The notes under the pieces: model-generated
What the model saw: the letters and a program-made list of their open reading frames with translations, nothing else
Told to the model about the DNA's origin: nothing
Database searches by the model: none
Translations under genes and position numbers: made by a program
Source of the DNA: Bradymonadia bacterium
GTDB taxonomy: Bacteria > Myxococcota_A > Bradymonadia > UBA7976 > UBA1532
Length of the DNA: 64,000 nt
NCBI GenBank assembly: GCA_046290225.1
Contig: JBKAGE010000082.1
Location: 203,402-267,401 of the forward strand
Direction of reading: 5' to 3'
Shown here: positions 1 to 37,136 of the stretch, in pieces
How the letters are laid out: the number at the start of each line of letters is the position of its first letter
How positions within the stretch are numbered: position 1 is the first letter of the stretch

Positions 1-7
1 GAGCCTC

Positions 8-655
8 GTGGAGCAGAAGAGCAGAAGCATCGCCGGTGAGACCATGGTGGGTGAGGCCAACCTCGAGCGCGCCCTCGTGGTGTACGAGCAGGCCCAAGCC
101 GCACAAGGCAACGTCACCACCCCCGTGCCCCACGCGCCGAGCCCCACTCGCGGCGCCCCTGGCGCCCTGGCTCAAATCTTCGGCGGTGACGCCGGCAGCA
201 GCAGCGGCTTCGCCGGCCAGCTGCCCGCAGCCCTCTCGGGCAACAGCGTCAGCTTCAGCGGGAGCGGTTCGAGCAAGGACGCCCCCGCCTTCACCGAGCT
301 GCCCGGGGGCCTCAACATGCCCCCAGTTTTGCTCGGCGGCCTCTTTGGTGATCGAGGCCCCAGCATCGGCAGCGGTGATCCCGCCATGCCCCCGGCGCCC
401 CCGTCGCGGATCATGGTGGACACCGGACACGCATCTCAACCTTCACCGGAGTCTGTCCTTCGGTCCACCCCCGGCGAGCGGCCCAACAGCAAGGCCGAGA
501 CCAGCGAAGAGTCCCGGCACCGGCTCGCCCGGAACCAAGTGGATGATCAGCTCAGCGACGAAGAGGTCGACAAGATCGCCGAGCAGGTCATCTACACGCT
601 CAAGCGCGAGGTGGAGATGGACAACACGCGTTATGGAGACGACGAATGGGACTGA
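8..655 (+). CDS. CIS-associated hypothetical protein, probably 5'-truncated by the window edge
   Basis: The frame is open to the window start. A low-complexity Pro/Gly/Ser region ends in a helix (DKIAEQVIYTLKREVEMDNTRYG) like those of genes preceding the LysM tube initiator in eCIS loci. The stop overlaps the next start. Confidence 0.6.
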   Translation: MEQKSRSIAGETMVGEANLERALVVYEQAQAAQGNVTTPVPHAPSPTRGAPGALAQIFGGDAGSSSGFAGQLPAALSGNSVSFSGSGSSKDAPAFTELPGGLNMPPVLLGGLFGDRGPSIGSGDPAMPPAPPSRIMVDTGHASQPSPESVLRSTPGERPNSKAETSEESRHRLARNQVDDQLSDEEVDKIAEQVIYTLKREVEMDNTRYGDDEWD

Positions 656-2508: not shown

Positions 2509-3165
2509 ATGGATGAGTCGAAGCTCGTCGACTGGTACGACATCATCGAGGCCATCGCCAATGGCCGCCTCGACGGTCACACCTGCCCGAATTGCGGCCA
2601 CCAGGGCCTTGAGATCAGCCACGAGAACTATCAGATGAGCGCCCGGTGCCCGAACTGCAACGAGGGGTTCTCTGGTCGTGGCGGTGGCCGGGACGACGCT
2701 TATGATCGGGAGGCCGCCGAGTTGATGGCGCGGCAGTCTCGGCGGCGGCAACCTTCGGTCACGGGACGCACCGTCGGCGTCACCGATCCCAACCTGTGCC
2801 CTCCGGTCCCTGGCGATGGCACCGTGAGCCCCGGGCTCGCGGCCATCCCCGCCCGCCCCTCGGCCCCGAGCCGACCCCCGCCGGTGAGGGCCAACGCCAC
2901 CCTCTACGAAGATCCGCCGGGCACCAAAAAACCCGAGCGCCGCGGAGAGCCCTGGGCGTGGCAGCTGCCCCACCAGGGGGGCGAACCCGACCCGGACGCG
3001 CTGGCCCTGTGGATGCCCCTCGTGGAGTCGATTCACAACGGCAGGCGCACGGGATTAACCTGCCCCTTCTGTAGCGAGCCGCTGCATGATATCCATCATC
3101 AGCCACCCCACCTGCGCATCGTCTGTCGCCAGTGCGGCGAAGCCTTCGAGGGCAGGATCGGGTGA
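2509..3165 (+). CDS. Hypothetical protein with two homologous CxxC...CxxC zinc-ribbon domains separated by a Pro-rich linker
   Basis: RBS GGGAGG upstream. Internal duplication W..I/LVE.I.NGR..G.TCP.C...C..C.E.F.GR at both ends. Confidence 0.75.
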   Translation: MDESKLVDWYDIIEAIANGRLDGHTCPNCGHQGLEISHENYQMSARCPNCNEGFSGRGGGRDDAYDREAAELMARQSRRRQPSVTGRTVGVTDPNLCPPVPGDGTVSPGLAAIPARPSAPSRPPPVRANATLYEDPPGTKKPERRGEPWAWQLPHQGGEPDPDALALWMPLVESIHNGRRTGLTCPFCSEPLHDIHHQPPHLRIVCRQCGEAFEGRIG

Positions 3166-3273: not shown

Positions 3274-3681
3274 GTGAGCACAGATCGGAGCTTCCTCGGC
3301 CGCGGCATCGCTTTTCCCATGAAGATCGATGGCGCCGGCGGACTCGCCCTCTCTTCCTACGAAGAGAACATCGAAGAGTGCATCCGCATCATCCTCGGCA
3401 CCGCCCCTGGCGAGCGGGTCTACCGCCTCGACTTCGGCTGCCGCATCCATGATCTGCTCTTCGCCCCGAACAACGCCAACACGCGCAACCTCGCCTCGTT
3501 CTATGTGAGAGAGGCCCTCATGAAGTGGGAGCCCCGCATCCGGGACATCGAGGTCGAGGCCGGGGCCGATCCGCTCAAGCCCAACACGCTGCGCATCGAG
3601 ATCAGCTACGCCGTTCGGGCCACGAACTCCCACTACAACCTGGTTTACCCCTTCTACCTGCGTCGCGAGGATGACCTATGA
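3274..3681 (+). CDS. GPW/gp25 family baseplate protein (Afp9-like)
   Basis: FLGRGIAFP, ILGTAPGERVYRLDFGC, WEPRI and NLVYPFYL motifs. Confidence 0.95.
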   Translation: MSTDRSFLGRGIAFPMKIDGAGGLALSSYEENIEECIRIILGTAPGERVYRLDFGCRIHDLLFAPNNANTRNLASFYVREALMKWEPRIRDIEVEAGADPLKPNTLRIEISYAVRATNSHYNLVYPFYLRREDDL

Positions 3682-6600
3682 TCCCGATCCCCAACCTTGA
3701 TGATCGCACCCACCGGGAGATCGTCGAGGAGGCGTTGAAGCTGATCCCGCAGTATTGCCCCGAGTGGACCAACTTCAACCCGTCTGATCCGGGCATCACC
3801 CTCATCGAGCTGTTCGCCTGGATGACCGAGATGGCCATCTATCGGCTCAACAAGGTCACCGACAAGAACTTCATCGCCTTCCTCAACCTGATGGGGGTGA
3901 GGCTGCAGGCGCCGCAGCCGGCCCACGCGCTACTGCAGTTCCAGCTCGTGAAGGGCGGCCCGCCCACGTGGATCAGGCAGGGCTTCCAGATCAGCACTGT
4001 GCCCGACGGCAAGGACGATCCGGTCATCTTCGAGGTGGAGAGCGATCTGCTCGTCAGCGACAACACCCTCGAGAAGGTCTTCACCCAGGTGAGCGACCTC
4101 TACGAGGACCAGACCCCCTTCATCGACGGCCGCCGTCGCGAGGGCTTCGAGGTCTTCGGGGGTCACAACCACATCGAGCGCAGCCTCTACCTCGGTGATC
4201 TGCGCTTCGAGCAGCTCAACGAAGACGCCACCCTCATCATCAAGATCGACAGCCCGGCGAACCACGCCCTCGTCGATCAGCTCGAGTGGGAGTATTGGAA
4301 CGGCCGCCGCTGGCGTGAGCTGAGCCGCTCCCTGAGCGAGACTGAGGAGGGCGCCATCGCCTTCGAGGACATCGATCAGATCGAAGCCACCGACGTGAAC
4401 GGCGTCGGCGTGCCCTGGATCCGAGGCCGCCTGATCGACACCCCTCAGAACACTGATCAGACCCTCATCGAGACCGTCGTCGCCCGCATCGAGCTCAGCG
4501 GCGAGGGCCTCAAGCCCGAGAAGGCCTATGTGGCCCACGTACACGACAACAGCACCGTGTACATCACCGTGGACGACAGCCGCACCTGGGCCCCCTTCGG
4601 CAAAGAGCCCAAGACCGAGCACACCCTCTACCTGATGCCTGGGGCCTTCCCCCAGGAGCCGGGCTCGGTGATCCGCCTCGAGGTGCAGCTCGCCGACCGC
4701 AAGACCCACGACGCCCCGGAGCCCAGCGATGATCTCAGCCTGCGCTGGGAGTACTGGAACGGCAAGAAGTGGGCCCCGCTGTGCCTGAAAGCCACCCCCG
4801 AGGGCGCCGAGAGCGCCGTCGACGTCGACTTTGTCGACGGCACCGAGGCCTTCACCCACTCCGGGGAGATCAAGTTCAAGCGCCCCGCCGATCTCGCCAG
4901 CACCGACGTGCAGGGCGAAGAGGGCACCTGGATCCGCGTACGCATCGAGGCCGGCGACTACGGCGAGGCCGGGCAGTACGAGCTCGACGGCGACCGCTGG
5001 CTCTGGCGCAACGAGCGCCCCCTGCGGCCCCCGTGGGTGAAGCAGATGGTGTTCCGGTACACCGAGCGCGATCGGTTCGTCGATCATGTGCTCACCTACA
5101 ACGACTTCGCCTACTTCGACCACTCGATGACCGCCCGGACCCCCCTCAAGGTGTTCCAAGCCTTCGAGCCCTCAGTAGAAGACAGCCCCACGCTCTATCT
5201 GGGCTTCAAGCAGGCCATGCCCAACGAGCCTGGGCAGATCTACTTCCAGATGACCGAGAACACTGCGGTACAGCGCGATCGCCGCCACGCGGAGTATCTC
5301 TCGCAGTACTACGCCGAGCGCGATCAGGTCCTCGACGCCGAGCAGCGGGTCATCTGGGAGTACTGGAACGGCCTGGAGTGGGTGAGCCTGAGCGCTGAAG
5401 ACGGCACCCGGGCCTTCACCGAGAGCGGGTTCCTGCAGTTCGTGGGCCCCGAAGACTGGAAGCGCAGCAAGCGCTTCGGCGAAGCTCTGTGCTGGCTGAG
5501 GGCTCGCCTCGAGATGGGGGGTTATCACCAGATGCCCCGCATCAGCCACGTGCTGCTCAACACCGTGAGCGCCAAGAACCACCTGAGCTTGAAGAACGAG
5601 GTCCTCGGCGCCAGCGACGGCACCCCCAACCAGACCTTCAAGTTCGCCCAGGGTCCCGTGCTCGAAGGTCAGGAGATCCGGGTCCGCGAGAAAGAGCTGC
5701 CCGACGGCCCCGAGAAAGACGCCCTGATGAAGCAGGGCGAAGATGTGGTCGAGCCCGCAGGCAAGAGCGGCTTCTGGGTGAAGTGGACCGAGGTGGAGAG
5801 CTTCTACGACAGCACCGGTCGTAGCCGGCACTACATCATCAACCGCACCGACGGCACCGTGCAGTTCGGCGACGGCAACAAGGGCATGATCCCGCCCTCG
5901 GGGAACGCCAACGTCGTGGCCCGACGCTACCGCATCGGCGGCGGCGTGCGGGGCAATGTCACCGCCCAGACCGTCACCGCCATGCGCCAGAGCCTCCCGT
6001 ACATCGAGGCGGTGGGTAACCCCTTCCCCGCCGCCGGAGGCAGCGACCAGGAGACCGTCGAAGAGGCCAAGGCCCGCGGGCCTCACCTCATCAAGAGCCG
6101 GAACCGCGCCGTCACCGCCGAAGACTTCGAGTGGCTCACCCTGCAGGCCTCGAACGGCGTCGCCCGGGCCAAGTGCCTCACCACCATCGGCCGTGAGGGC
6201 GAGATCACCATCGTGGTGGTGCCCAAGCAGGACGAGCGGGATCGCGATCTCAAGGTGAAGCTCAGCCCCAGCGCCGAGCTGTTGCGCCGGGTGAAGAACT
6301 ACATCGACGAGCGGCGCCTGCTCACCACCGTGGTCAAAATCTCGCCGCCGAAGTACGTCGAGGTGAGCGTCAAGATCGAGGTGATCCGCAAGGTGGCCAG
6401 CGGCGACAAGCAGCTCAAGAACGCCATCGAGCAGCGGCTGCGTACGTTCCTGCACCCCCTCGTGGGCAGCCGGAGTGGCGGTGGGTGGCCTTTTGGGCGC
6501 AACGTGCTCAAGCTCGACCTGTATCACGTCATCGAAGACATCCCCGGGGTCGATCTCGTCGATCGCATCCGGCTCTTCGACGAAGACCGCCGCGAAGAGG

Positions 6601-6686
6601 TGGAGCAGATCAAGGTGGCCGCCAACCAGCTCGTGCACCTCGTCGACGTCACCGTGGTCGAGAAGCCCCGTGAAGAGTTCCTGTGA
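3678..6686 (+). CDS. Baseplate J/gp6-like wedge protein (Afp11/12-like)
   Basis: PNLDDRT, YCPEWTNFNPSDPGITLIELFAW, three WEYWNG motifs, FGDGNKGMIPP, RAVTAEDFE and GWPFGR. ATGA overlap with gp25. Confidence 0.95.
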   Translation: MIPIPNLDDRTHREIVEEALKLIPQYCPEWTNFNPSDPGITLIELFAWMTEMAIYRLNKVTDKNFIAFLNLMGVRLQAPQPAHALLQFQLVKGGPPTWIRQGFQISTVPDGKDDPVIFEVESDLLVSDNTLEKVFTQVSDLYEDQTPFIDGRRREGFEVFGGHNHIERSLYLGDLRFEQLNEDATLIIKIDSPANHALVDQLEWEYWNGRRWRELSRSLSETEEGAIAFEDIDQIEATDVNGVGVPWIRGRLIDTPQNTDQTLIETVVARIELSGEGLKPEKAYVAHVHDNSTVYITVDDSRTWAPFGKEPKTEHTLYLMPGAFPQEPGSVIRLEVQLADRKTHDAPEPSDDLSLRWEYWNGKKWAPLCLKATPEGAESAVDVDFVDGTEAFTHSGEIKFKRPADLASTDVQGEEGTWIRVRIEAGDYGEAGQYELDGDRWLWRNERPLRPPWVKQMVFRYTERDRFVDHVLTYNDFAYFDHSMTARTPLKVFQAFEPSVEDSPTLYLGFKQAMPNEPGQIYFQMTENTAVQRDRRHAEYLSQYYAERDQVLDAEQRVIWEYWNGLEWVSLSAEDGTRAFTESGFLQFVGPEDWKRSKRFGEALCWLRARLEMGGYHQMPRISHVLLNTVSAKNHLSLKNEVLGASDGTPNQTFKFAQGPVLEGQEIRVREKELPDGPEKDALMKQGEDVVEPAGKSGFWVKWTEVESFYDSTGRSRHYIINRTDGTVQFGDGNKGMIPPSGNANVVARRYRIGGGVRGNVTAQTVTAMRQSLPYIEAVGNPFPAAGGSDQETVEEAKARGPHLIKSRNRAVTAEDFEWLTLQASNGVARAKCLTTIGREGEITIVVVPKQDERDRDLKVKLSPSAELLRRVKNYIDERRLLTTVVKISPPKYVEVSVKIEVIRKVASGDKQLKNAIEQRLRTFLHPLVGSRSGGGWPFGRNVLKLDLYHVIEDIPGVDLVDRIRLFDEDRREEVEQIKVAANQLVHLVDVTVVEKPREEFL

Positions 6687-6754
6687 AGAGTTCTTGTGAG
6701 CCCATGACCCGTCGTATAGACCCTTCTTCACGTACTTTCAGGGAGTAGCCTCGG

Positions 6755-7729
6755 GTGGCTGATCCGCGACCGAGAGAGCGACAGACAGTCCGTATGCCCG
6801 AGGTGGTGGGCATCATGCTGGAGAACGCCCAGCTGATGCTCACCAACGAGCACTTCGATCTGCGCCGGGTGAAGCTGCGGTACGAAGAGGCCTATCGCCC
6901 CGAAGACGAGGTGCTCAAGCAGCACCCGCAGCCCGGGGCCGTGGTGGCCACCGACGAGCCCGTAGAACTGGTCGTCAGCCGCCGCAGCCTGGTGAACCAC
7001 CTGCCTCAGGTCTATCAGAAGTCCGACAGCACCGGTCGGCACATGCTCAGAGATTTTCTGTGGGTCTTCGACCACATCTATGCCGATCTCGAGCGTACCC
7101 TCAACGGCCTGCACCGGTACTTCGACCCCCTCGAAGCCCCTGGAGAGTTTCTCCCCTGGCTGGCGAGCTGGGTGGCCCTCACCATCAACCAGGGCTGGGA
7201 CGACGCCAAGAAGCGCAAGCTGATCCGCGAGGCCATCGGCATCTACGGCTACCGGGGCACCGTGCGGGGCCTCAAGCTCTTCTTGTCGATCTTTACCGAC
7301 GTCGAGCCCGACATCCACGAGAACAAGTGGCCCTACAAGGGCTTCCGCGTCGGCAAGGTGAGGGTGGGCGTCGACTCGGTGGTGATCCCTCAGGTGAACC
7401 TGTCCCACTGCTTCATGGTGGAGATCCCCGCCGAATATCGGCACGTCGACGACAACGAGATCATCAAGATCCACGACATCATTCGCATGGAGAAGCCCTC
7501 CCACACCGCCTACTGCCTGACCTTCAAGGCCGCCCCCAAGGAAGATCTGCTGCAGCCCTTCCGCATCGGCGTCGGCCGCCTGGGCCTTCGGGAGTCCGGG
7601 GTCATGGGCAGCCGCCCGAGCGAAGCGGTCATGGAGGCCTTCCAGGAGAGAGACACCCTCGGCGAGGGTGCTACCAGCGAGCCAGCGACCGGCGACTCCT
7701 CGGGAGATGCCGAAGACACAACGGAGTGA
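6755..7729 (+). CDS. PASTA domain fused to phage tail protein I (P2 gpI / gp7-like wedge)
   Basis: N-terminal MPEVVG...AQLML...VLKQHPQPGAVV...VELVVS fits PASTA. It is followed by LPQVYQ...FL.VF...YFDP..AP.EFLPWLASW...RGTVRGL...KPSHT, which fits tail-I. Confidence 0.85.
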   Translation: MADPRPRERQTVRMPEVVGIMLENAQLMLTNEHFDLRRVKLRYEEAYRPEDEVLKQHPQPGAVVATDEPVELVVSRRSLVNHLPQVYQKSDSTGRHMLRDFLWVFDHIYADLERTLNGLHRYFDPLEAPGEFLPWLASWVALTINQGWDDAKKRKLIREAIGIYGYRGTVRGLKLFLSIFTDVEPDIHENKWPYKGFRVGKVRVGVDSVVIPQVNLSHCFMVEIPAEYRHVDDNEIIKIHDIIRMEKPSHTAYCLTFKAAPKEDLLQPFRIGVGRLGLRESGVMGSRPSEAVMEAFQERDTLGEGATSEPATGDSSGDAEDTTE

Positions 7730-7732
7730 TCC

Positions 7733-9295
7733 ATGGGGTCCGGTGAGAGCTTTAAGCGCATCAACTTCTTCAAGGGCTTCCTGGCCACCGAAGAAGACTT
7801 CAACGATGCCGAGAAATACCACCTCGAGAAGCGGCACCTGCACAACCAGGCCTTTCACGCCCCTGGCGTCGTTGCGCACCACGGCGACGGCCTGAGGGTC
7901 ACCAGCCGCGGTCGCGGTGATCTCTCCATCGAGATCGGTGCTGGCTATGCCATCGATGGCTTCGGTCGGGACATCTACGTGCCCGACAAGCAGATCAAGA
8001 CCATCAGCGCCGGTGACTTCAAGCTGCCCCAGACCATCTATGTGGTGGTGAAGTACCTCGAGGAGATGACCGACTTCATCCGGTACAAGGAAGTGCCCGA
8101 CTACCAGGGTCACCGCCGGATCCAGGAAGGCTTCAAGGTCGAGTTCACCAACGTCGAGCCCGACGTGAACCACGAGATCGAGCTCGCCCGCATCTACCTC
8201 GAAAAGGGCGCCAAGCGGATCATCGACGCCAAGGATCCGAACAAGCCCGAGGCCAACGAGATCGATCTGCGCTTCGTGCGCTACGCCGGCACCGTGGGCA
8301 TGTTCTTGAACAGCACGATCAGGGTCCGCCTGCGCGAGGCCATCGCGTTCCAGAAGCGGGTGTTCTCACACCTCTCCCGGGTGAAGAAGATCATCAGCGC
8401 CCAAGACGCCTTCCACGCGCTGATCACCCTGGACATGCTCACGCTCACGGCCCACATCGGCCACGACAACATCTGGGAGCTGCTCATCGAGCTCGCCAAG
8501 CTCGAGTGGGACGTGGTGAACGAGGCCGAGAGCCGGGTGCCCGATCTGAGCGCCCGCCGCGAGTTCACCAGTTTCAAGAAGAACATCGAGATCATGTACA
8601 ACTTCGCCGCGGAGAAGCGGCGGACCGACGAAGGCCTCGACAACGTCATCACCTACATGATGAAGACCTGCGAGAGCATCGAGATGCTGCTCGACCAGAT
8701 GCGCTCTTCGGAGATCGAGGTGAAGGCCATGGCCGACGCCCCGCAGGAGAGCAAGATCACCGAGTACATCGAGGGCGGCATCACCTTCGAGGAGCTCAAG
8801 GTCTACTCCAAAGAGTTCACCGAGAGCCTCATCGTCGACGGTCGCGAGTGGGTGCTTGTGGACATGATCGACATCCGCGACGAGCAGAACGAGAACGATC
8901 ACGAGTTCCGCATCAAAGAGGCCAAGGACACGTACCGCAGCCGCCAGAAGCTGCGGTACCCCGACGGCACCGTCGTCGAAGACCAGGGCATCGCCCACGA
9001 GGGCGGCTACTCAGAGTTCAAGGTCAAGAACGTCACTCCCCACCAGGATCTGGTCATGATCCGCCGCATGGATTACGTGCGGGCCGACTACCAGGCCGAG
9101 ATTCAGGTGAACGGCGCCCGTATGGACCGGATCATGGACTGCGCCGGGGCCGACAAGAAGTTCCGGTGGCGCAACTGGCCCTACGTGATCCCCGCCCAGC
9201 ACATCAGCTCCACGGTGATCAGCATCAAGCAGGTGATGCTCACCGCCGACCGGGACATCAACATGTTCCACTACTGGTTCTACCAGCCCAAGTGA
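7733..9295 (+). CDS. CIS tail-fibre-like protein (Afp13-type N-terminal baseplate anchor, helical middle, beta-rich C-terminal domain)
   Basis: N-terminal KRINFFKGFLATEEDF...YH..KRHLHN...PGVV...G.AIDGFGRDI matches the eCIS fibre anchor pattern. Its position after the wedge genes fits. Confidence 0.7.
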   Translation: MGSGESFKRINFFKGFLATEEDFNDAEKYHLEKRHLHNQAFHAPGVVAHHGDGLRVTSRGRGDLSIEIGAGYAIDGFGRDIYVPDKQIKTISAGDFKLPQTIYVVVKYLEEMTDFIRYKEVPDYQGHRRIQEGFKVEFTNVEPDVNHEIELARIYLEKGAKRIIDAKDPNKPEANEIDLRFVRYAGTVGMFLNSTIRVRLREAIAFQKRVFSHLSRVKKIISAQDAFHALITLDMLTLTAHIGHDNIWELLIELAKLEWDVVNEAESRVPDLSARREFTSFKKNIEIMYNFAAEKRRTDEGLDNVITYMMKTCESIEMLLDQMRSSEIEVKAMADAPQESKITEYIEGGITFEELKVYSKEFTESLIVDGREWVLVDMIDIRDEQNENDHEFRIKEAKDTYRSRQKLRYPDGTVVEDQGIAHEGGYSEFKVKNVTPHQDLVMIRRMDYVRADYQAEIQVNGARMDRIMDCAGADKKFRWRNWPYVIPAQHISSTVISIKQVMLTADRDINMFHYWFYQPK

Positions 9296-9435: not shown

Positions 9436-10218
9436 ATGATGTTCCGTGATCCACGCAAAGTCGTCCAAGATCGGATCAACATGCGGATCCAGAACGCCCA
9501 GATGCGGGCCAAGTCCCAAGTGCGTGGCGCTGGAGTCCGTGTCATCAGCGCAGGTGAGCGCAAGGCAAAGCAGGCCACCGACAACGCCAAAGCGAAAGCC
9601 AAAGGCAAAGGCCAAAAAGCCGCCCCAAACCAGGCGCCTCAGCAGGCGACTGCAGAAAAGAAGAAGTTCAGTTTGTGGCCCTTCGGTAAGAACAAGCAAG
9701 ACGCAGCTGGCCAGGCGCCCGCCTGCCACAGCTGTGGCCAGGCCATCGACCCTTCATGGGAGCTGTGCCCTTACTGCGGCACCAGCCTCGCCGAGGCCCC
9801 GGCCCCTCAAGCGCAAATGCAGGCAGCCCCCGTACCGGGTGCGCCGGTCCCTGCCATGCCCCAGATGACCGGGAACAAGACCCAGGCCATCAACCTCGAC
9901 GAGCTCGCCGGTCCCCAGAAGATGGTGGTGGGCTGGCTGGTCATCATGGAGGGCAACGAGAAGGGCCGTGACTTCAGGCTCTACGAGGGCCAGAACAGCA
10001 TCGGCGCCGCCGCTGACTGCAACATCGTGGTCAACGACGAGTACCTCTCGGCTCACCACGCCAGCATCCGATTCGACGATGGGCGCTACGAGTTGATCGA
10101 CAAAGACTCCACCAACGGGTGCTTCCTCAACGAGAAGCGCATCTCCCGCGAGGAGCTCGTCGACAACGACACCATCCGGCTGGGACGCACCCATCTCCGC
10201 TTCAAGGCGATCTATTGA
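9436..10218 (+). CDS. Zinc-ribbon + FHA domain protein
   Basis: CHSC...WELCPYC followed by VVGWLV...GQNSIG...LSAHHA...DSTNG, an FHA domain. Confidence 0.88.
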   Translation: MMFRDPRKVVQDRINMRIQNAQMRAKSQVRGAGVRVISAGERKAKQATDNAKAKAKGKGQKAAPNQAPQQATAEKKKFSLWPFGKNKQDAAGQAPACHSCGQAIDPSWELCPYCGTSLAEAPAPQAQMQAAPVPGAPVPAMPQMTGNKTQAINLDELAGPQKMVVGWLVIMEGNEKGRDFRLYEGQNSIGAAADCNIVVNDEYLSAHHASIRFDDGRYELIDKDSTNGCFLNEKRISREELVDNDTIRLGRTHLRFKAIY

Positions 10219-10282: not shown

Positions 10283-11845
10283 ATGCGATCCATCATGTCT
10301 GGTCTGCGCGCAGGCCTTCTCTGCAGCGCCCCACTGCTCATCACCACGCTGATCGTCTCGGGCCTGATCATCACCGGCCTCGGCACCCCGGCCTACAGCC
10401 AGGGCAAGCAGCTCGCCAGCACCACCCAGCTGCGTCTCGACGCGGTGGACACCAGCAAGGGCAAAAAGGGCGAGCTGGTGCTCTTCGGCTCGTTCCTCAA
10501 CGAGTTTGGTCAGTCGGTGCCGGCGCTGAAGTCGGAGTACTGGACGATCCAGCTCGACGGCGAGCCCCTGGAGCTCGACCCCGAGTCCCTCACGGTGAAG
10601 TCGCTCAAGGACAGCGACGAGGGCGTCTACGTGGTGCTTGTGGCCATGGCCTGCTGCAACATGATGGCCGAGGAAGAGCAGTTCGCCGCCATCAAGAAGG
10701 GCATCGAGGAGATCCTCAACGGCCTGGGCAGCAAGGACCAGTCGGCGGTGGTGCTCTATCAAGAGGGCGTGCTCAAGACCAGCAGCCTCAACCCCTCTCA
10801 CGAAGAGGCGGTGGTCTGGCTCGGTCAGAAGGGCGAGGCCGACGGCACCGGGCCTCAGTTCTTCAGCGCCATCGAGCAGGCCCTGAAGTTCTTCCCGCCA
10901 GAGTTCGGCACCCTCAACTCGAACCGCCACATCATCGTCATCAGCGATGGCGACGATGTCGATCGCATCACCGATCGTTCAAAGACCCGCGAGAAGCTCA
11001 AGGCCCTCAAGACCAACGCCAACGCCAAGAAGGTGAAGGTGCACTCCATCGGCCTGGTCTTCGAGGGGCAGCAATCGGAGACCCTGGCCAATCTGCGCAC
11101 CCTCTCCGGTGGTACTGGCGGTGTCTATCGCGAGTCGAAGGACTTCACCCGCACCCGAGATCACCTCTCGGCCCTCAAGAGCCAGCTGCTCGAGCAGAAC
11201 GTGCTCTACGTGAAGACCAACGACTTCGAAGGCGAGAAGGACATCACCTACACCCTCTCGGTGAAGCACCCCAGCTCCGGCAAGGTGTTCAACGCCCTGG
11301 CCCCAGTCGTCGAGTACACCCCCGAGGTCGAGACGAACCTGTGGCGGAACATCCTGCTCATCAGCGGTGGCGTCGTGGGCCTCGGCCTCTTCGGCTGGCT
11401 GGGCATGATCCTTGTGCGCCGCATGGGCAACCGCGACACCGGCGAGGTCTTCGTCGACGCCGGCGAGGAAACCCGGGAGTGCGAGCAGTGCGGCAACACC
11501 ATCCCCGTAGACTGGATGGTCTGTAAATACTGCGAGGCCCTGCCCCACAAGGGCCGCCTCACGGTCATCAGCACGGGCGATCTCAACGGCCGGGTGTGGT
11601 TCATCAAAGAGTCTCTGGTGAACATCGGCCGCTCCGATGGGAACCACATCATGATCCCCGACACCACGGTGTCGAAGCGCCACGCGGGTATCAAGGTGGA
11701 CAATGGCCGCTTCGAGCTGGCGGACTTCGGCAGCACCTCGGGGGTGCTGGTGAACGGGCAACGCATCACCAAACGCTTCCTCAAAGACGGCGATGCGATC
11801 CACGTGGGCGGCATCGAGCTCGAATTCAAGCTCAAGAAGAGCTGA
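10283..11845 (+). CDS. Membrane protein with VWA-like domain, TM helix, zinc ribbon and C-terminal FHA
   Basis: Hydrophobic N-terminal signal. VWA-like IIVISDG...VKVHSIG...TGGVY. TM segment ILLISGGVVGLGLFGWLGMILV-RR. CEQC...CKYC. FHA motif IGR...VSKRHA. The start may be a few codons later. Confidence 0.85.
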   Translation: MRSIMSGLRAGLLCSAPLLITTLIVSGLIITGLGTPAYSQGKQLASTTQLRLDAVDTSKGKKGELVLFGSFLNEFGQSVPALKSEYWTIQLDGEPLELDPESLTVKSLKDSDEGVYVVLVAMACCNMMAEEEQFAAIKKGIEEILNGLGSKDQSAVVLYQEGVLKTSSLNPSHEEAVVWLGQKGEADGTGPQFFSAIEQALKFFPPEFGTLNSNRHIIVISDGDDVDRITDRSKTREKLKALKTNANAKKVKVHSIGLVFEGQQSETLANLRTLSGGTGGVYRESKDFTRTRDHLSALKSQLLEQNVLYVKTNDFEGEKDITYTLSVKHPSSGKVFNALAPVVEYTPEVETNLWRNILLISGGVVGLGLFGWLGMILVRRMGNRDTGEVFVDAGEETRECEQCGNTIPVDWMVCKYCEALPHKGRLTVISTGDLNGRVWFIKESLVNIGRSDGNHIMIPDTTVSKRHAGIKVDNGRFELADFGSTSGVLVNGQRITKRFLKDGDAIHVGGIELEFKLKKS

Positions 11846-16768: not shown

Positions 16769-18256
16769 TCAGAGCCAGGTCTCCACAGCCCCAGTCTCTG
16801 CCTCTTGGGGGCGCTGATATTGCCCCATCAGATCTGACAACCACTCTGGTGCCAGTGAATCGAAGACAAAGCCGCTCTCGTCTTCCTTGACCCACACCAC
16901 AGACCCTTCCAGTCCGTGGGGGGTGCCCTCGAGTGAGAGGGTGATGCTCTGGCCCACCTTGAGCAACTCGGGCGCATCTTCGGGCTGATGCACTCGGCAG
17001 CCTGACCGTGACAGCTCTTGCAGCAACACCCGATGCGTCTCGCCCTCGGCCGACAATGTACCCCACAGCCCTTGCACATGTACTCGCGGATACTTGCGCC
17101 GATTGCCCACATGGGACTTGCGCAGGGCAGTGAGGAAGGTCACCACCTCTCCACTGAGCTGGTTCGACGTGGTCTTGAGCACCGATGAAGCGCACAAGCT
17201 CTGACTGGCATGACCTGTCGCGTCGTCGAGCATCTCGTCGACCTTGCTCACAGCGCTGGCGATGCCCTCGGCGTCTTCCACAGTCTTCTGAATATGGCCG
17301 GAGATCTCTCGAGTCGTCGCCTCTTGCTGCACCACCGCACCAGAGATGCTGCCCACGCTCTGATTGATCTCGTCGATGGTGTGGCCGATCACTTTGATCG
17401 TCTCCACCACCTGTAGGGTCACGCGCTGAACCTCTTCAATCTCGGCCCCGATCTGCTCGGTTGCATCTGACGTCTGACGGGCCAGGCTCTTGACCTCGTC
17501 AGCAACGACGGCGAAGCCCTTACCTGCCTCCCCCGCCCGGGCAGCCTCGATGGTGGCGTTCAACGCCAGCAGGTTCGTCTTCTTCGCGATGGCCTCGATG
17601 AGGCCCGAGACATGACCGATGCTCTGCACTGCATCCGACAAGCCATTGACCACCTCCGCGGTGTGCTGCATTTCCGACACCGCCTCTTGAGCCGTCTCCG
17701 ATGACTCTGTGGTCAAGCGGGCGATCTCCGAGATTGTGGCGGTCATTTCTTCTGTCGAGCCTGCGAGGGCCTGCATGTGATCTGAGGCGTTGCGGGCCAT
17801 GTCGGTGATCTCGCTGTTGCGCGCCTGCGAGTTCATGGCCACCTCGCTGGTCTCAATCGACGCGTTCTCCACCATCTCTGCCGAGAAGTCGACCTGTTGC
17901 AACAGGCTGAAGACATTGCTCTCCAGCAATCGACCCATCTCCACCAACTGTTCGCTGAGGGTACTCACTTCGATGTCGTGCTCTGAAGGCTGGCTGCCCT
18001 CCTGAGCCTCTTCCACGGCATCACAGGCGGTCGCCGCCGTGATCTCGGACAGAGCCTCGTACCCAGACACTGGCTCAGATGCTTCACGGCTTCGGTGAGC
18101 CATGACCAGGCACCCGAGGCTGATCGCAACCGCAACGAAGCCGACCACCATGGGCGCCCAGGCGATGGCCACGAGCAACCCGATGTGGCAACCCACTTCG
18201 CCCCACAACCACACTGTTGATGTTCGTTTTGACGTTTGCGTGGAGGGGGTGTGCAC
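16769..18256 (-). CDS. Methyl-accepting chemotaxis protein with C-terminal PilZ domain
   Basis: IAKKTNLLALNATIEAARAGEAGKGFAVVADEVKSLA is the MCP signalling tip. Two N-terminal TM helices. C-terminal RRKYPR...ELSRSG...VVW PilZ. Confidence 0.92.
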   Translation of the reverse strand: MHTPSTQTSKRTSTVWLWGEVGCHIGLLVAIAWAPMVVGFVAVAISLGCLVMAHRSREASEPVSGYEALSEITAATACDAVEEAQEGSQPSEHDIEVSTLSEQLVEMGRLLESNVFSLLQQVDFSAEMVENASIETSEVAMNSQARNSEITDMARNASDHMQALAGSTEEMTATISEIARLTTESSETAQEAVSEMQHTAEVVNGLSDAVQSIGHVSGLIEAIAKKTNLLALNATIEAARAGEAGKGFAVVADEVKSLARQTSDATEQIGAEIEEVQRVTLQVVETIKVIGHTIDEINQSVGSISGAVVQQEATTREISGHIQKTVEDAEGIASAVSKVDEMLDDATGHASQSLCASSVLKTTSNQLSGEVVTFLTALRKSHVGNRRKYPRVHVQGLWGTLSAEGETHRVLLQELSRSGCRVHQPEDAPELLKVGQSITLSLEGTPHGLEGSVVWVKEDESGFVFDSLAPEWLSDLMGQYQRPQEAETGAVETWL

Positions 18257-24680: not shown

Positions 24681-27600
24681 TCACTTCCCGTCGGACTTGC
24701 CCTCGGGGCTCTTCTCCGCAGGCTTGGCCTCAGAAGCCTTCTCTGGGGCCTTCTCAGAGGTTTTTTCTGAGGCTTTCTTTGGGGCCTTCTCAGCGGGCTT
24801 GTCACCCTTCTTCCCAGCCTCTTCCTGCGCCTTGCACTCCGGCGTGATGATCCGCGACAGGATCTTGAACTCCACCCGGCGGTTGCGGCGGCGACCGTCG
24901 GCGGTGTTGTTCGGCTCCAGAGGCTCGTCTTCGCCGAAGCCCTTCGCCACCAGACGGTTCGCCGCGAGCTTGCCCTTGTCGATCAGGTAGCGGCGCACCT
25001 GCTCCGCGCGGCGCTTCGAGAGATCGAGGTTGTAGCTCGCCGGACCGCGGCTGTCGGTGTGACCGCCCACCTGCACCTTGCGGATACTCGGGCTGTTGCG
25101 CATCAGCTGCACCACATCGTCGAGCAGCTTCTGCGACTCGTCACGGAGCGTGGCCGAGTCAGTCTTGAACAGCACGCGCTGACCCTTGAGATCGATGCGA
25201 TCACACTGCACCTTCGGGCCCTCGGGGCGGGTGTCCGGGCAGCCATCGTCGTCCTCGAAGTCGTTCACGTTCTCCGCGTCGTTCGGGCACTTGTCTTCCT
25301 TGTCGAGGAAGCCGTCCTTGTCGTTGTCCGGATCCGGGCAACCGTCAGCATCCTCGAACTCGTCGACATCCTCAGGGTCGAGGGGGCACTTGTCCGAAGC
25401 GTCGGGCACGCCGTCCTTGTCGTTGTCGAGATCCGGGCAGCCGTCCTCGTCCTCGAACTCGTCCTTGTCCTCAGCGTCGTTCGGACACTGATCAGGCTCG
25501 TCGAGGATGCCGTCACCGTCGTTGTCCGGATCCGGGCAGCCATCCTTGTCCTCGTAGTCGTCTTTGTCCTCAGGCTCGTTGACGCACTTGTCTTCGTCGT
25601 CGTAGATGCCGTCGCCATCGGTATCCACTCGGGGAGCAGGCTCCTTGTAGGGCTCCGCACGGAAGGCCAGGCCGCTGAAGAGGCGCCAGTCGGGCGTGCC
25701 CACGCCCTGCACCAGGCCCGTGGCGGCGCCCAGCTCGAGGCGCAGGCGCTCCAGCACATCCCAGCGGACCCCCATGAGCAGCTCCATGGGGATCTCCTCC
25801 TCGTCGATGCTGTCCGCGGCCACCGTCGCCGAGCCCATGATCTCGGGCACCAGGCTGAAGCCACCCCCCACGGGGATGGCCGCACCGGCGCTCCAGATCA
25901 GGGCGTCGTCGATCTCGGCGTTGGCCAGACGGGCCTTCTCTCGGAAGCGCCAGCCCACGTTCGCCGCGAGGCGGGTGCCCCCGGAGAAGCCGTAGTCCAC
26001 CGCCACCCGAGGCGTCGCCCCAAAGCCTTCGCCCTGGTACGAAGCGTTGTCCCCCGTGGGGATCGAGAAGTCGCCGACGAGGGCCAGGCCGAAACCACCT
26101 GCCTCTTCGCCAGGCTTGCCCACGAGGCCCACCCGGGCGCTCACCCGGATGTCACCGATGCCGAAGCCCGCGTCGTTCGCCGCGCCGCCGGGCACCGAGG
26201 GCACCTCTTCGCCGTCTTGCGACAGCACCACAGGGGCCACCACGCCGAGGTCGAGCCAGTCGAAGATGCCCAGCGTCAGGGCGAGGTTCGCCGTCAGCTG
26301 GTGCTCGATGAGGTGGCCGAGGCGATCACCGTTGGCGCCCTCCACCACCAGGGGGTTGTCATCGAAGGTCAACAACACGCCGAGATCGTAGCGGCCCTGA
26401 CCGCGAGTGCGGCCCGTCCAGGTGGAGTTGAGATCACCCCAGCGGCTCGGCGCCGGGCGGAACTGCTGCACGTCGAAGCGATCGTTCGCCTGAGCCTGAG
26501 CCTGCTCGGGCATCGACGCCAGCACCACCGGCGCCAGCAGCGCCAGCCACAGCACCTGCCGAGACTGGGCAGTGCGACGGGCGCGAGGCGCGCGGGCGAC
26601 TTCTAGAAGCCGCCTCCGACGCATCATGCCCAGAGCCAGCAACATGAAGGCCAGCAGCGCAGCGGTGCCACCAGCGCTCGAGGTCGCCGAAGCGTCGCAA
26701 CCGAAGAACTGGCCACCGAGCACCTTGGGATCGTCATCGTTCGGGTCGAGCGGATCAGCCCCTCGGCCCACCTCGATGCCGTCGTTCACGCCGCCGTCGT
26801 CGGTGTCGGGATCGTTGGGATCCGTCTCACCGTCGTCTACAGCACCGTTGGCGTTCATGTCCTCGCCCTCGTCACAGACATCCTCCACGGCGACAGCGCC
26901 GTCACAGAGGCCGTCACCATCAGAGTCGGCGTTCGTCGGGTCAGTGGCGTTCTCGGCGTTGACCTCGTCGCCGTCGTCGATGCCGTCACCGTCCGTGTCG
27001 CTGTTGTTGGGATCAGTGCCCAGCATCTCTTCCGTGTCGTTGTCGATGCCGTCGCCGTCGTCGTCCTGCACGTCGTCCTCGGGATCGAGGGGATCCGTGC
27101 CGCGCTCCACCTCTTCACCGTCGGAGATCGTGCCCCCGTCGGTGTCGGCGTTGTTCGGATCGGTCTCTCCGTCGTCGATGGCACCGTTCTGGTTCTCGTC
27201 TTCCTCACCGTCTTCGAGGCCGTCGTCGTCGGTGTCGGCGTCCAGCGGATCGGTGGGGTTCTCGCCGAGCACCTCGATGCCGTCGGAGAGGCCGTCACCA
27301 TCGGTGTCGGGGTTGTTCGGGTCGGTGCCCCGCATCATCTCGTCTTCGTCGCCGAGGCCGTCACCATCGCTGTCAGGGCCACGGGCGTCGTCCGAAGGGT
27401 CGAGCGGATCAGTCTCGTTCATCACCTCTTGACCATCACCCACGCCACCGTCATCGGTGTCGAAGTCGTTGGGATCAGTCTCACCCTCGTCCAGGGCGCC
27501 GTTGCCGTTGGCGTCTTCCTCACCATCAGTGAGGCCGTCGTCATCGGAGTCGTCGTCCAGCGGATCAGTGGGGTTGTCACCGGTGACCTCGGTGCCGTCG

Positions 27601-30600
27601 GAGAGACCATCCCCGTCACCATCCGGGTTGTTCGGGTCAGTCTCGCCTTCGTCGATGGCGCCGTTGTTGTTCACATCTTCACCGGCAGCACACTCGTCTT
27701 CCACGGCGTTGGCACCATCACACAGGCCATCGTCGTCGGAGTCAGCGTCCAGCGGATCAGTGGGGTTCTCGCCGTTGACCTCGGTGCCGTCGTTGATGCC
27801 GTCACCATCAGTGTCGGGGTTCGTCGGATCAGTGCCGATCATCACCTCTTCACCGTTGGGCAGGCCGTCACCGTCGAAGTCGCCGGAGAGGTCGTCCACC
27901 GGATCGAGCGGGTCAGTGCCGTCCATGGTCACCTCGACGCCGTCAGGCACGCCGCCGTTGTCGGTGTCCGCGTTGTTCGGATCGGTCTCACCCTCATCGA
28001 TGGCACCGTTGTTGTTCACGTCCTCGCCAGCGGCGCAGACATCTTCCACAGCGTTGGCACCATCACAGAGGCCATCGTCGTCGGAGTCGGGGTCGAGCGG
28101 ATCAGTGGGGTTGTCACCGTTGAGTTCAGTGCCGTCGTTGATGCCGTCACCATCAGTGTCGGGGTTGTTCGGGTCAGTCTCGCCCTCGTCCACGGCGCCG
28201 TTGTTGTTGGCGTCCTCACCGCCAGAGCACTCACCGTCGAGCTCGTTGGCACCGTCACACAGGCCATCGTCGTCAGTGTCGCGATCCAGAGGATCGGTGG
28301 GGTTGGCGCCGAGGACCTCGGTGCCGTCGAGGATGCCGTCACCGTCCGTATCAGCGTCGTTGGGATCAGTCTCGCCTTCGTCGATGGCGCCGTTGTTGTT
28401 GGCGTCCTCACCGGGCACACAGACGTCCTCCACCTCGGCGCTGCCGTCACAGAGACCATCGTCATCGGAGTCGGGGTCGAGCGGATCCGTGGGGTTGTCC
28501 CCGAGGACCTCGGGACCATCGAGGATCCCGTCGTCGTCGGAGTCCGGGTCGAGCGGATCAGTGCCCGCGTCGATCTCACCCTGGTTATCCAGGCCGTCGT
28601 TGTCAGCGTCGCCGCCGAGATCGTCGAGGGGGTTGAGCGGGTCAGTGCCGTCGATGAGCACCTCGACGCCGTCGGGCACGCCGCCGTTGTCGGTGTCCGC
28701 GTTGTTCGGATCAGTCTCGCCCTCGTCCACAGCGCCGTTGTTGTTCATGTCTTCGCCACCGGCGCAGATGCCCGCCACGCTGCGGCTGCCGTCACAGAGG
28801 CCATCGCCATCGGTGTCGGCCTGAACCGGATCGGTGGGGTTGGCGCCGAAGACCTCAGTGCCATCGAGGATGCCGTCACCGTCGGTGTCGGGGTTGTCCG
28901 GGTCAGTGCCCAAACGGCCCTCGTCGCCATCGTTGAGGCCGTCACCGTCGCGATCACCAGGTACATCGTCAGCGGGATCGAGCGGATCAGTGTTGTCGGT
29001 GATGACCTCCTGGCCATCGCCCACGCCACCATCGTCGGTGTCGAAGTCGTTGGGGTTGGTCTCACCCTCGTCCAACGTGCCGTTGTTGTTCACGTCCTCG
29101 CCAGCGACGCAGATGCCGTCCACGGGCAGCTGGCCGTCACACAGGCCGTCGTCGTCGGAGTCGGGGTCCAGCGGATCGGTGCTGTTCTCACCATTGACCT
29201 CGATGCCGTCGCTGATGCCATCGCCGTCGGTGTCGGGGTTGTCCGGATCAGTGCCCAGACGATCCTCGTCACCATCGTCCAGGCCGTCGCCGTCACGGTC
29301 GTCGAGCTGGTCATCTGCAGGATCAAGCGGATCAGTGTCATCAACGATGACCTCTTCGCCATCGCCCACGCCACCATCATCGGTGTCGAAGTCGTTGGGG
29401 TTGGTCTCACCCTCGTCGACAGCACCATTGTTGTTGGCGTCCTCGCCAGCGGCGCAGCCCCCTTCGATGGCGTTGCCACCATCACACAGACCGTCGTCGT
29501 CAGAGTCAGCGTCGAGCGGGTTCGTGGGGTTCTGACCGTTGACCTCGCGACCATCGAGGATGCCATCGCCATCCGTATCAGGGTTGTCGGGGTCAGTGCC
29601 CAGGATGATCTCTTCACCATCCGTGAGGCCATCACCGTCGCGATCCCGAGGGGCGTCGGCGAGATCATCTGCAGGATCCAGAGGATCGGTGCCGTTGAAG
29701 AGCACCTCGAGGCCATCGCTCACGCCGCCGTCGTCAGTGTCGGCGTTGTTCGGATCAGTCTCGTCAGCGTCGGTGGCGCCGTTGTCGTTGGCGTCTTCCA
29801 CACCATCGAGCAGGCCATCGTCGTCAGAGTCGCGGTCCAGCGGATCAGTGGGGTTGTCCCCGGCGACCTCGGAGCCATCAGAGCGGCCGTCGTTGTCGGT
29901 GTCGGGGTTGTTCGGGTCGGTCTCGCCTTCGTCGATGGCGCCGTTGTTGTTGGCATCCTCACCGGCGGCGCAGACACCGTCGATGGCGTTGGCGCCATCA
30001 CACAGGCCGTCATCATCAGAGTCAGGGTCCAGCGGATCAGTGGGGTTGTCCCCCTCGATCTCCACGAGATCCTCGATGCCGTCACCGTCGGTATCGGCGA
30101 GGTTCGGATCGGTCTCGCCCTCGTCGATGGCGCCGTTGTTGTTCACGTCTTCGCCGGAGACACAGACGCCGTCGATGGCGTTGGCGCCATCACACAAGCC
30201 GTCATCGTCGGTGTCGGGGTTCAACGGGTTCGTGGGGTTGTCGCCGTTGACCTCAGTGCCGTCGCTGATGCCATCACCATCGGTGTCGGGGTTGTTCGGA
30301 TCCGTGCCGAGATCATCCTCGTCGCGATCGAGCAGGCCGTCACCGTCGGTGTCGAGCAGATCATCGTCGGGGTTGAGCGGGTCAGTGCCGTCCACGAGCA
30401 CCTCGCGGCCATCGTCGATGCCACCGTTGTCAGTATCCGCGGTGTTCGGATCGGTCTCGCCCTCGTCGATGTCACCATCAACGTCGACGTCCTCACCCGA
30501 GACACAGACATCGGCCACGTCAGCGTTGCCATCGCAGAGGCCGTCATCGTCAGAGTCGGGGTCCAGCGGATCAGTGGGGTTGTTCCCGTTGACCTCAGTG

Positions 30601-36600: not shown

Positions 36601-37136
36601 CCATTGATCGGCGCATCAGCCCCGGGGTTGTTCTGCGCATCCTGACCGAGATCGAAGGCACACGTAACACCTATGTCTACCGTGCTCGTCGGCGTATCAG
36701 GGGCAATGTCGAAGCGGGCCTCGATCAGCGCCTCGGGGGCATCTGCGGCGAGGCCGCTCACTGGCACCTGCAAGTGATAAAGGGTGAACCCCTCAGGGCC
36801 AGTGACCGGCTGACCCGTGATCGGGTGTGGCAGCTGGTTGCCCGGCGCAGCGGGGAACACCCCGCCATTGACGACACGGGCGGGCAAACCCAGGGCCTCG
36901 GCGCTCGACAGGCTGAATCCCGGCGGCGCGAAGAGCGCCACGCCAGGGCCAAAGCCTGCTGCATTGCCAGTGTTGTCGAGTGTGATCGCGAGCTCGACCC
37001 CATCCCCAACGAGGGGGGTGGTGGTCGACTCGAAGTCGAGCTCGAGATTGCAAGTGGGCGTTTGAGCGCTCGCGGCGCTCGAGAGCCCCGCCCAGACCAG
37101 TGCTGCTGCGCACGCGTTCCAATAATGCCGAGGCAT
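24681..37136 (-). CDS. Giant 4151-aa surface protein: DUF11/isopeptide-type Ig-like repeats, Ca-binding DxDxDG repeats, internal MYXO-CTERM-like segment, TraB-like OM barrel + TSP3 + OmpA
   Basis: RBS GGAGG and signal peptide. Repeated K....GD.VT(F/Y).I...N domains. Dozens of [16 protein letters not shown] repeats. GC...TM-RRRR segment. C-terminal GHTDSRG...NLDLSKRRA...NRRVEF OmpA domain. Confidence 0.9.
26730..31530 (-). repeat. Coding tandem array of acidic Ca-binding repeats inside the giant ORF
   Basis: Recurring module [41 protein letters not shown]...C..GEDxNNNG.xDEG, with visible DNA-level similarity such as cggatcagtggggttgtc and gatggcgccgttgttgtt. Confidence 0.9.

Follow-up and report, generated by a model that had tools for sequence, protein, structure and literature searches.

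A PASTA domain at the N-terminus of the baseplate wedge protein Cis12 in contractile injection systems of Myxococcota and Bradymonadia

The stretch of DNA analyzed here (hereinafter, the window) consists of 64,000 nucleotides from contig JBKAGE010000082.1 of a Bradymonadia bacterium and encodes, on the forward strand at positions 6755–7729, a protein of 324 amino acids (aa) that Pfam, NCBIfam, AlphaFold2 (AF2) modeling and Foldseek identify as Cis12, the gp7/P2 gpI/Tri2/TssG-like baseplate wedge protein of a contractile injection system (CIS). The N-terminal part of this protein, residues 12–75 (6788–6979), is a genuine single PASTA domain, and a large CIS lineage of Myxococcota and Bradymonadia has the PASTA-containing protein as its standard Cis12. 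The architecture is already recorded in precomputed Pfam architectures, and NCBI names such proteins 'PASTA domain-containing protein' or 'phage tail protein'; what is new is that a known wedge protein carries an unexpected, conserved accessory PASTA domain. Literature searches, which covered papers other than their supplements (where domain architectures might be listed), found none discussing PASTA on a CIS baseplate. A catalog of receptor binding by extracellular CIS (eCIS; PMC12923769) contains neither 'PASTA' nor 'peptidoglycan', and a study of Myxococcota eCIS-like clusters (PMC11937823) mentions PASTA, baseplate and FHA zero times each.

The Pfam PASTA model (PF03793) matches residues 12–75 over model positions 1–63 of 64, with an E-value of 7.3e-8 and a score of 32.7 bits against the cut-off of 23.2. 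A profile of 44 Cis12 homologs matches the PASTA of Mycobacterium tuberculosis PknB (2kui) over the same residues (E = 1.1e-19), and a profile of the N-terminal segment (42 rows) matches 12 PDB sequences, all of them PASTA domains of kinases or penicillin-binding proteins (PBPs), with the best E-value of 3.2e-33; the top matches are PknB and PrkC/Stk1, and the PASTA domains of PBPs score far weaker. When run against 1.84 billion representative sequences, the N-terminal profile retrieved 31,735 proteins at E ≤ 0.001, and three of the top proteins of this exhaustive search are, according to Pfam, pure PASTA repeat proteins, with 7, 12 and 8 repeats. In the AF2 model, residues 11–80 are predicted with a local distance difference test score (pLDDT) of 92–97 and follow the order beta-alpha-beta-beta-beta-beta, with the short strand, one helix and three-stranded sheet that characterize the PASTA fold. 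Foldseek superimposes this part of the model on PASTA4 of StkP (5nod) with a root-mean-square deviation (rmsd) of 1.6 Å and TMt of 0.80, and on PASTA3 of PknB (3ouv) with an rmsd of 1.4 Å and TMt of 0.89. The initial annotation, made from the letters of the DNA, had noticed the PASTA pattern at residues ~12–75 and proposed a Pfam search of residues 10–80 as a check; Pfam finds PASTA above the cut-off, and the PDB profile matches and the modeled fold agree. The PADLOC matches to the PD-T4-6 kinase models involve only the PASTA part of these models and are uninformative.

Thus, the Cis12 PASTA has the same sequence profile and fold as the PASTA domains of PknB, PrkC/Stk1, StkP and class B PBPs. 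The setting is different: the PASTA domains of Ser/Thr kinases and PBPs are extracytoplasmic, usually arranged in tandem and located C-terminal to a membrane anchor, whereas that of Cis12 is single, N-terminal and fused to a Tail_P2_I domain in a cytoplasmically assembled phage-tail-like protein, and has a Y-x-E-x-Y stripe of its own. A hydrophobicity scan of the 324 aa found no window of the signal-peptide or transmembrane (TM) type, in line with the initial annotation, which had noted the lack of a signal peptide.

The open reading frame (ORF) begins with a GTG codon, and the database entry for this Cis12 begins 13 codons later, at the ATG at 6794 (311 aa). These observations could be taken to indicate that translation starts downstream of the PASTA segment, an outcome that the initial annotation had named as fatal to the fusion, or that the PASTA match is due to chance, so that no PASTA domain is made. 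We regard such an artefact as exceedingly improbable: the complete Pfam match is retained with both candidate starts; residues 4–20 are conserved in the homolog alignment, with P15 and G19 invariant; and neither the profile E-values of 1e-19 to 3e-33 nor the fit of a confidently modeled segment to a PASTA structure at 1.4 Å is compatible with a spurious match. The GTG start is supported because the positions preceding M14 are conserved in homologs, several of which have L at position 14, and because a Shine–Dalgarno-like AGGGAG (6740–6745, forward strand), read from the sequence, lies 9 nt upstream of the GTG.

The PASTA domain is followed by the conserved wedge core, residues 79–262 (6989–7540), which consists of stem helices (97–123) and an alpha/beta trifurcation-type domain, and then by an acidic C-terminal tail, residues 263–324 (7541–7726), that is predicted to be disordered (pLDDT < 50) and differs in length among the aligned homologs. 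The core is recognized by the NCBIfam model TIGR02242 (residues 81–190; E = 1.2e-27; 96.5 bits against the cut-off of 51.85), by the Pfam model Tail_P2_I (residues 112–248; E = 4.8e-12; 46.4 bits against 20.6) and by Foldseek, which matches it with 9gtp_A (E = 4.5e-8), 8kea_c, 8v3w_4, 9gb2_M, 6u5b_0 and 9ki1; the homolog profile, in addition, matches 9gtp_E at residues 80–187 (E = 4.4e-15). The core thus resembles the small triplex or wedge subunits of the Streptomyces coelicolor CIS, cyanophage A-1(L), diffocin, pyocin R2 (PA0619) and Mu. The equivalog model of full-length Cis12, NF053768 (CIS12_fam; 715 positions), matches only through its positions 467–572, with 81.3 bits against the cut-off of 860; because this match is partial, the protein is not a full-length member of that family but has only the core domain in common with it. 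In the alignment, PASTA ends at residue 75 and the core motif L-P-x-x-Y-Q starts at residue 83, so that the two domains abut, with no long linker between them. Together with the Pfam and NCBIfam boundaries, this agrees with the direct fusion of PASTA to the tail-I wedge domain that was proposed initially.

The small Cis12/Tri2/gpI proteins, including those of S. coelicolor (9GTP), pyocin R2 (PA0619; 6U5B), Mu and P2, have this core fold in common with the window's Cis12 and are likewise encoded between Baseplate_J and a fiber-like gene. However, the solved small chains comprise 177–190 aa and are matched only from approximately residue 80 onward, so that they lack a counterpart of the N-terminal domain; the PASTA in front and the disordered acidic tail behind are features of the Bradymonadia Cis12. 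An accessory module on the wedge protein is also present in Alg12, Afp12, Pvc12 and the Anabaena Cis12, where it serves for fiber binding or anchoring. The Alg12/Afp12/Pvc12-type proteins are fused, gp6/gp7-like, with large multi-domain extensions and 700–1,100 aa in length. By contrast, the protein described here, with its 324 aa, contains only PASTA and Tail_P2_I, that is, a 64-residue domain on a gp7-only protein, and its best fold matches are short Tri2-type chains. In the system for type VI secretion (T6SS), too, a gp7-like wedge protein, TssG, is followed by a TssK-like protein. Unlike a T6SS locus, the stretch that was read showed no genes of the membrane complex, and the head of the neighboring Cis13-like protein resembles a carbohydrate-binding module (CBM); furthermore, TssG as described in the excerpt of PMC6300606 has no PASTA.

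The initial annotation suggested a survey of the PASTA–Tail_P2_I architecture, and the fusion turned out to be widespread in the Myxococcota CIS lineage. Among the matches listed, PF03793 is present on 94 of 120 homolog clusters; the named sources of the listed clusters are Myxococcota, Myxococcales or Bradymonadales metagenome-assembled genomes (MAGs) and, once, 'bacterium', and the weak, non-PASTA end of the list includes one Nitrospirales MAG. The best 80 of the 565 confirmed relatives obtained by a profile scan of genome contigs comprise 47 related and 33 outgroup loci (denoted here by L and a number). The 47 related loci match the PASTA part and are labeled mostly as Myxococcota, Bradymonadia or Deltaproteobacteria, with a few odd labels, whereas the 33 outgroup loci, from Chloroflexota, Planctomycetota, Armatimonadota, Cyanobacteriota and a few other groups, match only from residues 56–101. 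By a Pfam search of the 80 ORFs, 44 of the 47 related loci (41 at or above the cut-off) and none of the 33 outgroup loci contain PASTA at E ≤ 0.01. The domain scores below the Pfam cut-off in L015, L043 and L045, and is divergent in L050 and L051. A natural variant with a broken PASTA was observed in L047 (2856–3698), where an internal deletion removes the PASTA helix and the second strand. Four loci labeled as Bacteroidaceae, Enterobacteriaceae or Klebsiella pneumoniae MAGs (L025, L036, L042 and L046) carry the Myxococcota-type CIS module, nest among the Myxococcota rows of the tree and are probably mislabeled or mis-binned. More broadly, a Cis12 match at E ≤ 1e-10 is found in 168 of the 401 sampled genomes of the phylum, and in at least 100 of the 401, the match begins no later than profile position 11 and thus covers PASTA. 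The ESM Atlas contains three clusters with the PASTA–Cis12 architecture, with 153, 76 and 84 members.

In a tree of the core domain, in which all 81 rows were kept, 43 of the 45 rows with an intact PASTA form one group, with a support of 88 in the SH-like approximate likelihood ratio test (SH-aLRT); the remaining two, L032 and L048, fall together with three degenerate rows into an unresolved fork. A single origin of the fusion is compatible with this topology. With regard to a phage source, tblastn yielded no matches in 50,697 phage records, no PHROG covers residues 1–75, and seven relatives in IMG/VR align only from residue 78 or further downstream, without the PASTA part; the best 50 matches in BFVD are tail or baseplate proteins, for which aligned ranges are not given, so that coverage of PASTA is unreadable. 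The genome that contains the window encodes a single Tail_P2_I protein and only one other PASTA domain, which is located at the C-terminus of an FtsI-type class B PBP adjoining MurE (contig C75; L003:1–1698). With 8 of 23 positions identical, the Cis12 PASTA is not a recent copy of this domain. A word-based search for a donor, with residues 8–80 against longer proteins, found nothing, and the exhaustive profile search returned at its top only multi-repeat PASTA proteins and names no donor. A possible parallel comes from three ESM Atlas clusters of ~300-aa proteins from Acidobacteriota and Zixibacteria, in which T6SS_TssG is annotated on 92–96% and PASTA on 20–31% of the members; with scores of 0.76–0.80, these clusters are rated by the Atlas search as leads only.

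The surroundings of the gene bear out the baseplate setting that the initial annotation assigned to it. Ahead of the window are genes for a Pvc16-type cap, two sheath proteins and two tube proteins, and within it, all on the forward strand, a LysM-containing tube initiator (Cis7; 646–1314), a VgrG-like spike (Cis8; 1376–2470), a gp25-like Cis9 (3274–3681) and the 1002-aa Cis11, which is Baseplate_J/gp6/TssF-like (3678–6686), precede Cis12. Downstream, likewise on the forward strand, is the gene for a Cis13-like protein of 520 aa (7733–9295), with a TssK-like shoulder and neck and a CBM6/35-like C-terminal beta-sandwich; its N-terminus partially matches CIS13_fam (NCBIfam), and its AF2 model is matched by Foldseek with TssK (5y0e, 5mwn and 6n38) and CBM6/35. 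Within this sheath, tube and spike cluster, the order is, accordingly, gp25, Baseplate_J, Cis12 and a fiber-like gene, and the tail-fiber slot is occupied by the TssK-like, CBM6/35-headed protein. As for expression, no RNA data set was listed for positions 3678–9295, and the eight DNA data sets listed all had small shares. Next come, again on the forward strand, a zinc-ribbon and FHA protein (9436–10218) and a membrane protein (10283–11845) with an N-terminal hydrophobic segment, VWA, a second TM segment, a zinc ribbon and FHA, for which the predicted topology places VWA outside and the zinc ribbon and FHA inside. This pair of FHA genes recalls the Fha/PpkA control of T6SS; there is no adjacent kinase. 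The second tube gene and the tube initiator are separated by an ORF of ~1,549 aa (L002:16006–19998, extending into window positions 2–655), in which Pfam matches nothing over the first 1,331 aa. By position, it may be the tape measure, for which it is unusually long. A 218-aa zinc-ribbon protein encoded between the VgrG-like spike and gp25 (2509–3165) is only partly conserved in the related loci. The place between the spike and gp25 is a frequent site of the PAAR or Cis10 gene.

In the outgroup loci, the N-terminal slot of Cis12 is filled differently. The Chloroflexota (Thermoflexales) proteins L065:1076–2146 and L070:7410–8510 carry FHA, a phosphothreonine-binding domain, in place of PASTA, with the same core and in the same slot; L073 has an NHL propeller; and many Chloroflexota Cis12 among L052–L084 (for example, L055:4676–5068) contain an unnamed domain of ~130 aa without a Pfam match. 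Only 7–29 residues precede the core motif in L054, L056, L064, L072, L076, L082 and L083. The Atlas likewise includes Cis12 clusters with FHA (54 members), NHL and Big_5. The existence of relatives with almost no N-terminal domain indicates that the core wedge does not need one, and the variation of the slot content suggests that PASTA is an accessory input module rather than an assembly element. As judged from these sequence comparisons, different lineages plug different binding modules into the N-terminal slot of Cis12. The gp7-like part of Cis12 has been described by the AlgoCIS authors as a hotspot for re-engineering (excerpt of PMC8894135).

Most of the studied PASTA domains bind peptidoglycan-type ligands. 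By analogy, we tentatively propose that the Cis12 PASTA is a recognition module for a ligand of this type, an assignment that we consider somewhat short of an even chance. The proposal combines the kinase-type affinity of the domain, the ligands of PASTA domains elsewhere, the recognition modules in the slot of the relatives and the glycan-binding-like head encoded next door; moreover, there is precedent for docking modules among the Cis12 extras, namely, in AlgoCIS (PMC8894135) and in Anabaena, where the Cis12 extension contacts the membrane (PMC8894136), according to the excerpts of both papers. In the closest solved baseplate, that of the S. coelicolor CIS (9gtp), each wedge contains two Cis11 and one Cis12 (excerpt of PMC12237407). 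By this token, the baseplate would display six Cis12 and hence six PASTA domains, so that the display of several copies suggested in the initial annotation was a sound expectation; to judge from the closest solved baseplates, each PASTA would sit immediately ahead of the stem helix, which forms a bundle with the two Cis11 copies. Its ligands would be those of kinase-type domains, namely, muropeptide, nascent glycan strands or lipid II, and binding would either help the baseplate dock onto cell-wall material or report that such material is present. The TssK-like, CBM-headed Cis13-like protein would act together with PASTA and might dock on Cis12 loops, in the way TssK trimers dock onto TssG loops in T6SS (PMC6300606) and Tail_P2_I proteins are modeled with fibers in the eCIS catalog (PMC12923769). 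The site of action would be either the prey, after release, or the producer's own envelope. A function of this kind had been put forward in the initial annotation, according to which the displayed domains could recognize cell-wall material of prey or self or serve as a trigger.

Several observations weigh against recognition of peptidoglycan. CIS assembly is cytoplasmic, and the canonical PASTA ligands, with the exception of lipid-linked precursors, are scarce there; Cis12 itself has no export signal. Muropeptide binding is not universal among PASTA domains; that of M. tuberculosis PonA2, for example, lacks it. The Chloroflexota relatives have FHA, a domain of cytoplasmic phospho-signaling, in the same slot, and 27–28 of the 47 related loci are adjoined by a gene for a membrane protein whose FHA is cytoplasmic. 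Furthermore, the Atlas proteins annotated as TssG with PASTA would, if they belong to true T6SS, be cytoplasmic as well; at position 33, the copy in the window deviates from the family, with H instead of the G present in 98% of the members; L047 keeps the Cis11, Cis13-like and FHA genes despite the deletion in its PASTA; and the absence of a flexible linker between PASTA and the core fits a fixed structural contact.

Such a contact is the essence of an alternative that we consider nearly as likely as peptidoglycan recognition, namely, that PASTA is a protein–protein adaptor or brace within the baseplate, packed on the N-terminal half of Cis11 or on the Cis13-like trimer, with no cell-wall ligand. 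The Cis11–Cis12–Cis13-like synteny holds in all 47 related loci (gp25 is matched in 43, the other four being cut by the contig end), and both neighbors have parts specific to the PASTA clade: the N-terminal ~480 residues of Cis11 have no matches outside it, with the outgroups aligning from ~480 onward, and the same holds for residues 190–520 of the Cis13-like protein. These clade-specific partners and the linker-free junction are as expected of a brace, and in Anabaena, an additional Cis11 domain stabilizes Cis12 (excerpt of PMC8894136). The level of constraint fits, too: PASTA is nearly as conserved as the structural core, with mean pairwise identities of 0.42 for PASTA, 0.50 for the core and 0.54 for the Cis13-like head (counted without L032, L047, L050 and L051). 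Adaptor function sits less well with the relatives that have almost no N-terminal domain, given that the core wedge needs none, and with FHA and NHL, which occupy the slot elsewhere and are recognition modules rather than braces. In addition, L048 and L032 retain PASTA with Cis13-like proteins that differ after residues 188 and 308, respectively. Together with the reverse case, L047, these two loci weaken the notion of an obligate contact of PASTA with the C-terminus of the Cis13-like protein.

That PASTA, the core and the Cis13-like head are all not hypervariable suggests a conserved ligand or partner. The conservation of this head within the clade is unlike that of typical receptor-binding tips. 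PASTA itself is distinguished by Y43-x-E45-x-Y47, F34 and a basic stretch ahead of beta1, which the family conserves and which are rare in 1,770 generic PASTA repeats, a comparison set that is biased towards multi-repeat proteins; the window's own copy keeps Y43, E45 and Y47.

The lack of an export signal, the FHA in the slot of relatives and the adjoining membrane FHA protein favor a cytoplasmic role, regulatory or adaptor. The regulatory variant, in which PASTA would be a cytoplasmic input of a cell-associated CIS, sensing lipid-linked or soluble cell-wall precursors or docking a signaling partner such as the neighboring FHA proteins and gating assembly or firing in the producer, appears less likely than peptidoglycan recognition and bracing but is a serious rival. 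Firing of the Streptomyces CIS is triggered by envelope stress via CisA, which provides an analogy for such an input. Fusion of FHA at the slot in L065, L070 and the 54-member Atlas cluster is in its favor, as is the presence of the zinc-ribbon–FHA and VWA–TM–zinc-ribbon–FHA genes downstream in 27–28 of the 47 loci (an FHA-bearing ORF was found downstream in 28 of the 47). The closest solved baseplate comes from a cytoplasmic CIS that requires a membrane adaptor (PMC12237407), and the Cis13-like protein is similar to TssK, the connector between the baseplate and the membrane complex of T6SS (PMC6300606). On the other hand, a search reaching 8 kb found no FHA genes at 19 of the 47 loci even though PASTA is kept there, the entire gut/rumen clade being among them and some of the contigs concerned being cut short, and the locus has no conserved kinase. 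More specific still, and rather improbable, is a scheme that combines recognition with control, in which the six PASTA domains of the baseplate, adjoining its membrane-proximal face, would be sensors of cell-wall status that gate firing, so that a cell-associated injector would read the levels of lipid II or muropeptides, in the producer under envelope stress or in a prey cell that it touches, and release the trigger.

These readings touch upon two open questions, the nature of the CIS trigger and the way targets are found by systems without classical tail fibers. The PASTA lineage is widespread in a phylum of predators and social bacteria and places a domain with a well-studied class of ligands, peptidoglycan fragments and lipid II, on the wedge protein that participates in the conformational switch of the baseplate. 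If PASTA binds the cell wall, these would be the first injectors with a peptidoglycan reader integrated in the baseplate, which would be useful when engineered CIS are to be given new targets; otherwise, the fusion illustrates how PASTA can be put to a new use as a simple protein adaptor. In either case, the modular N-terminus of the small Cis12 (PASTA, FHA, NHL, Big_5 or the unnamed domain) extends the AlgoCIS 'hotspot' idea to pyocin-like baseplates, and if the Atlas lead on TssG with PASTA holds, the presence of PASTA on injector baseplates might be recurrent.

Two further genes of the window, both on the reverse strand, are worth recording. Just downstream of the CIS-linked genes, positions 16769–18256 encode a protein that combines an MCP signaling domain with PilZ. 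Farther along, an ORF of 4,151 aa (24681–37136) probably encodes a giant protein of the cell envelope; it contains DUF11 and bacterial TSP3 repeats and ends in an OmpA domain.

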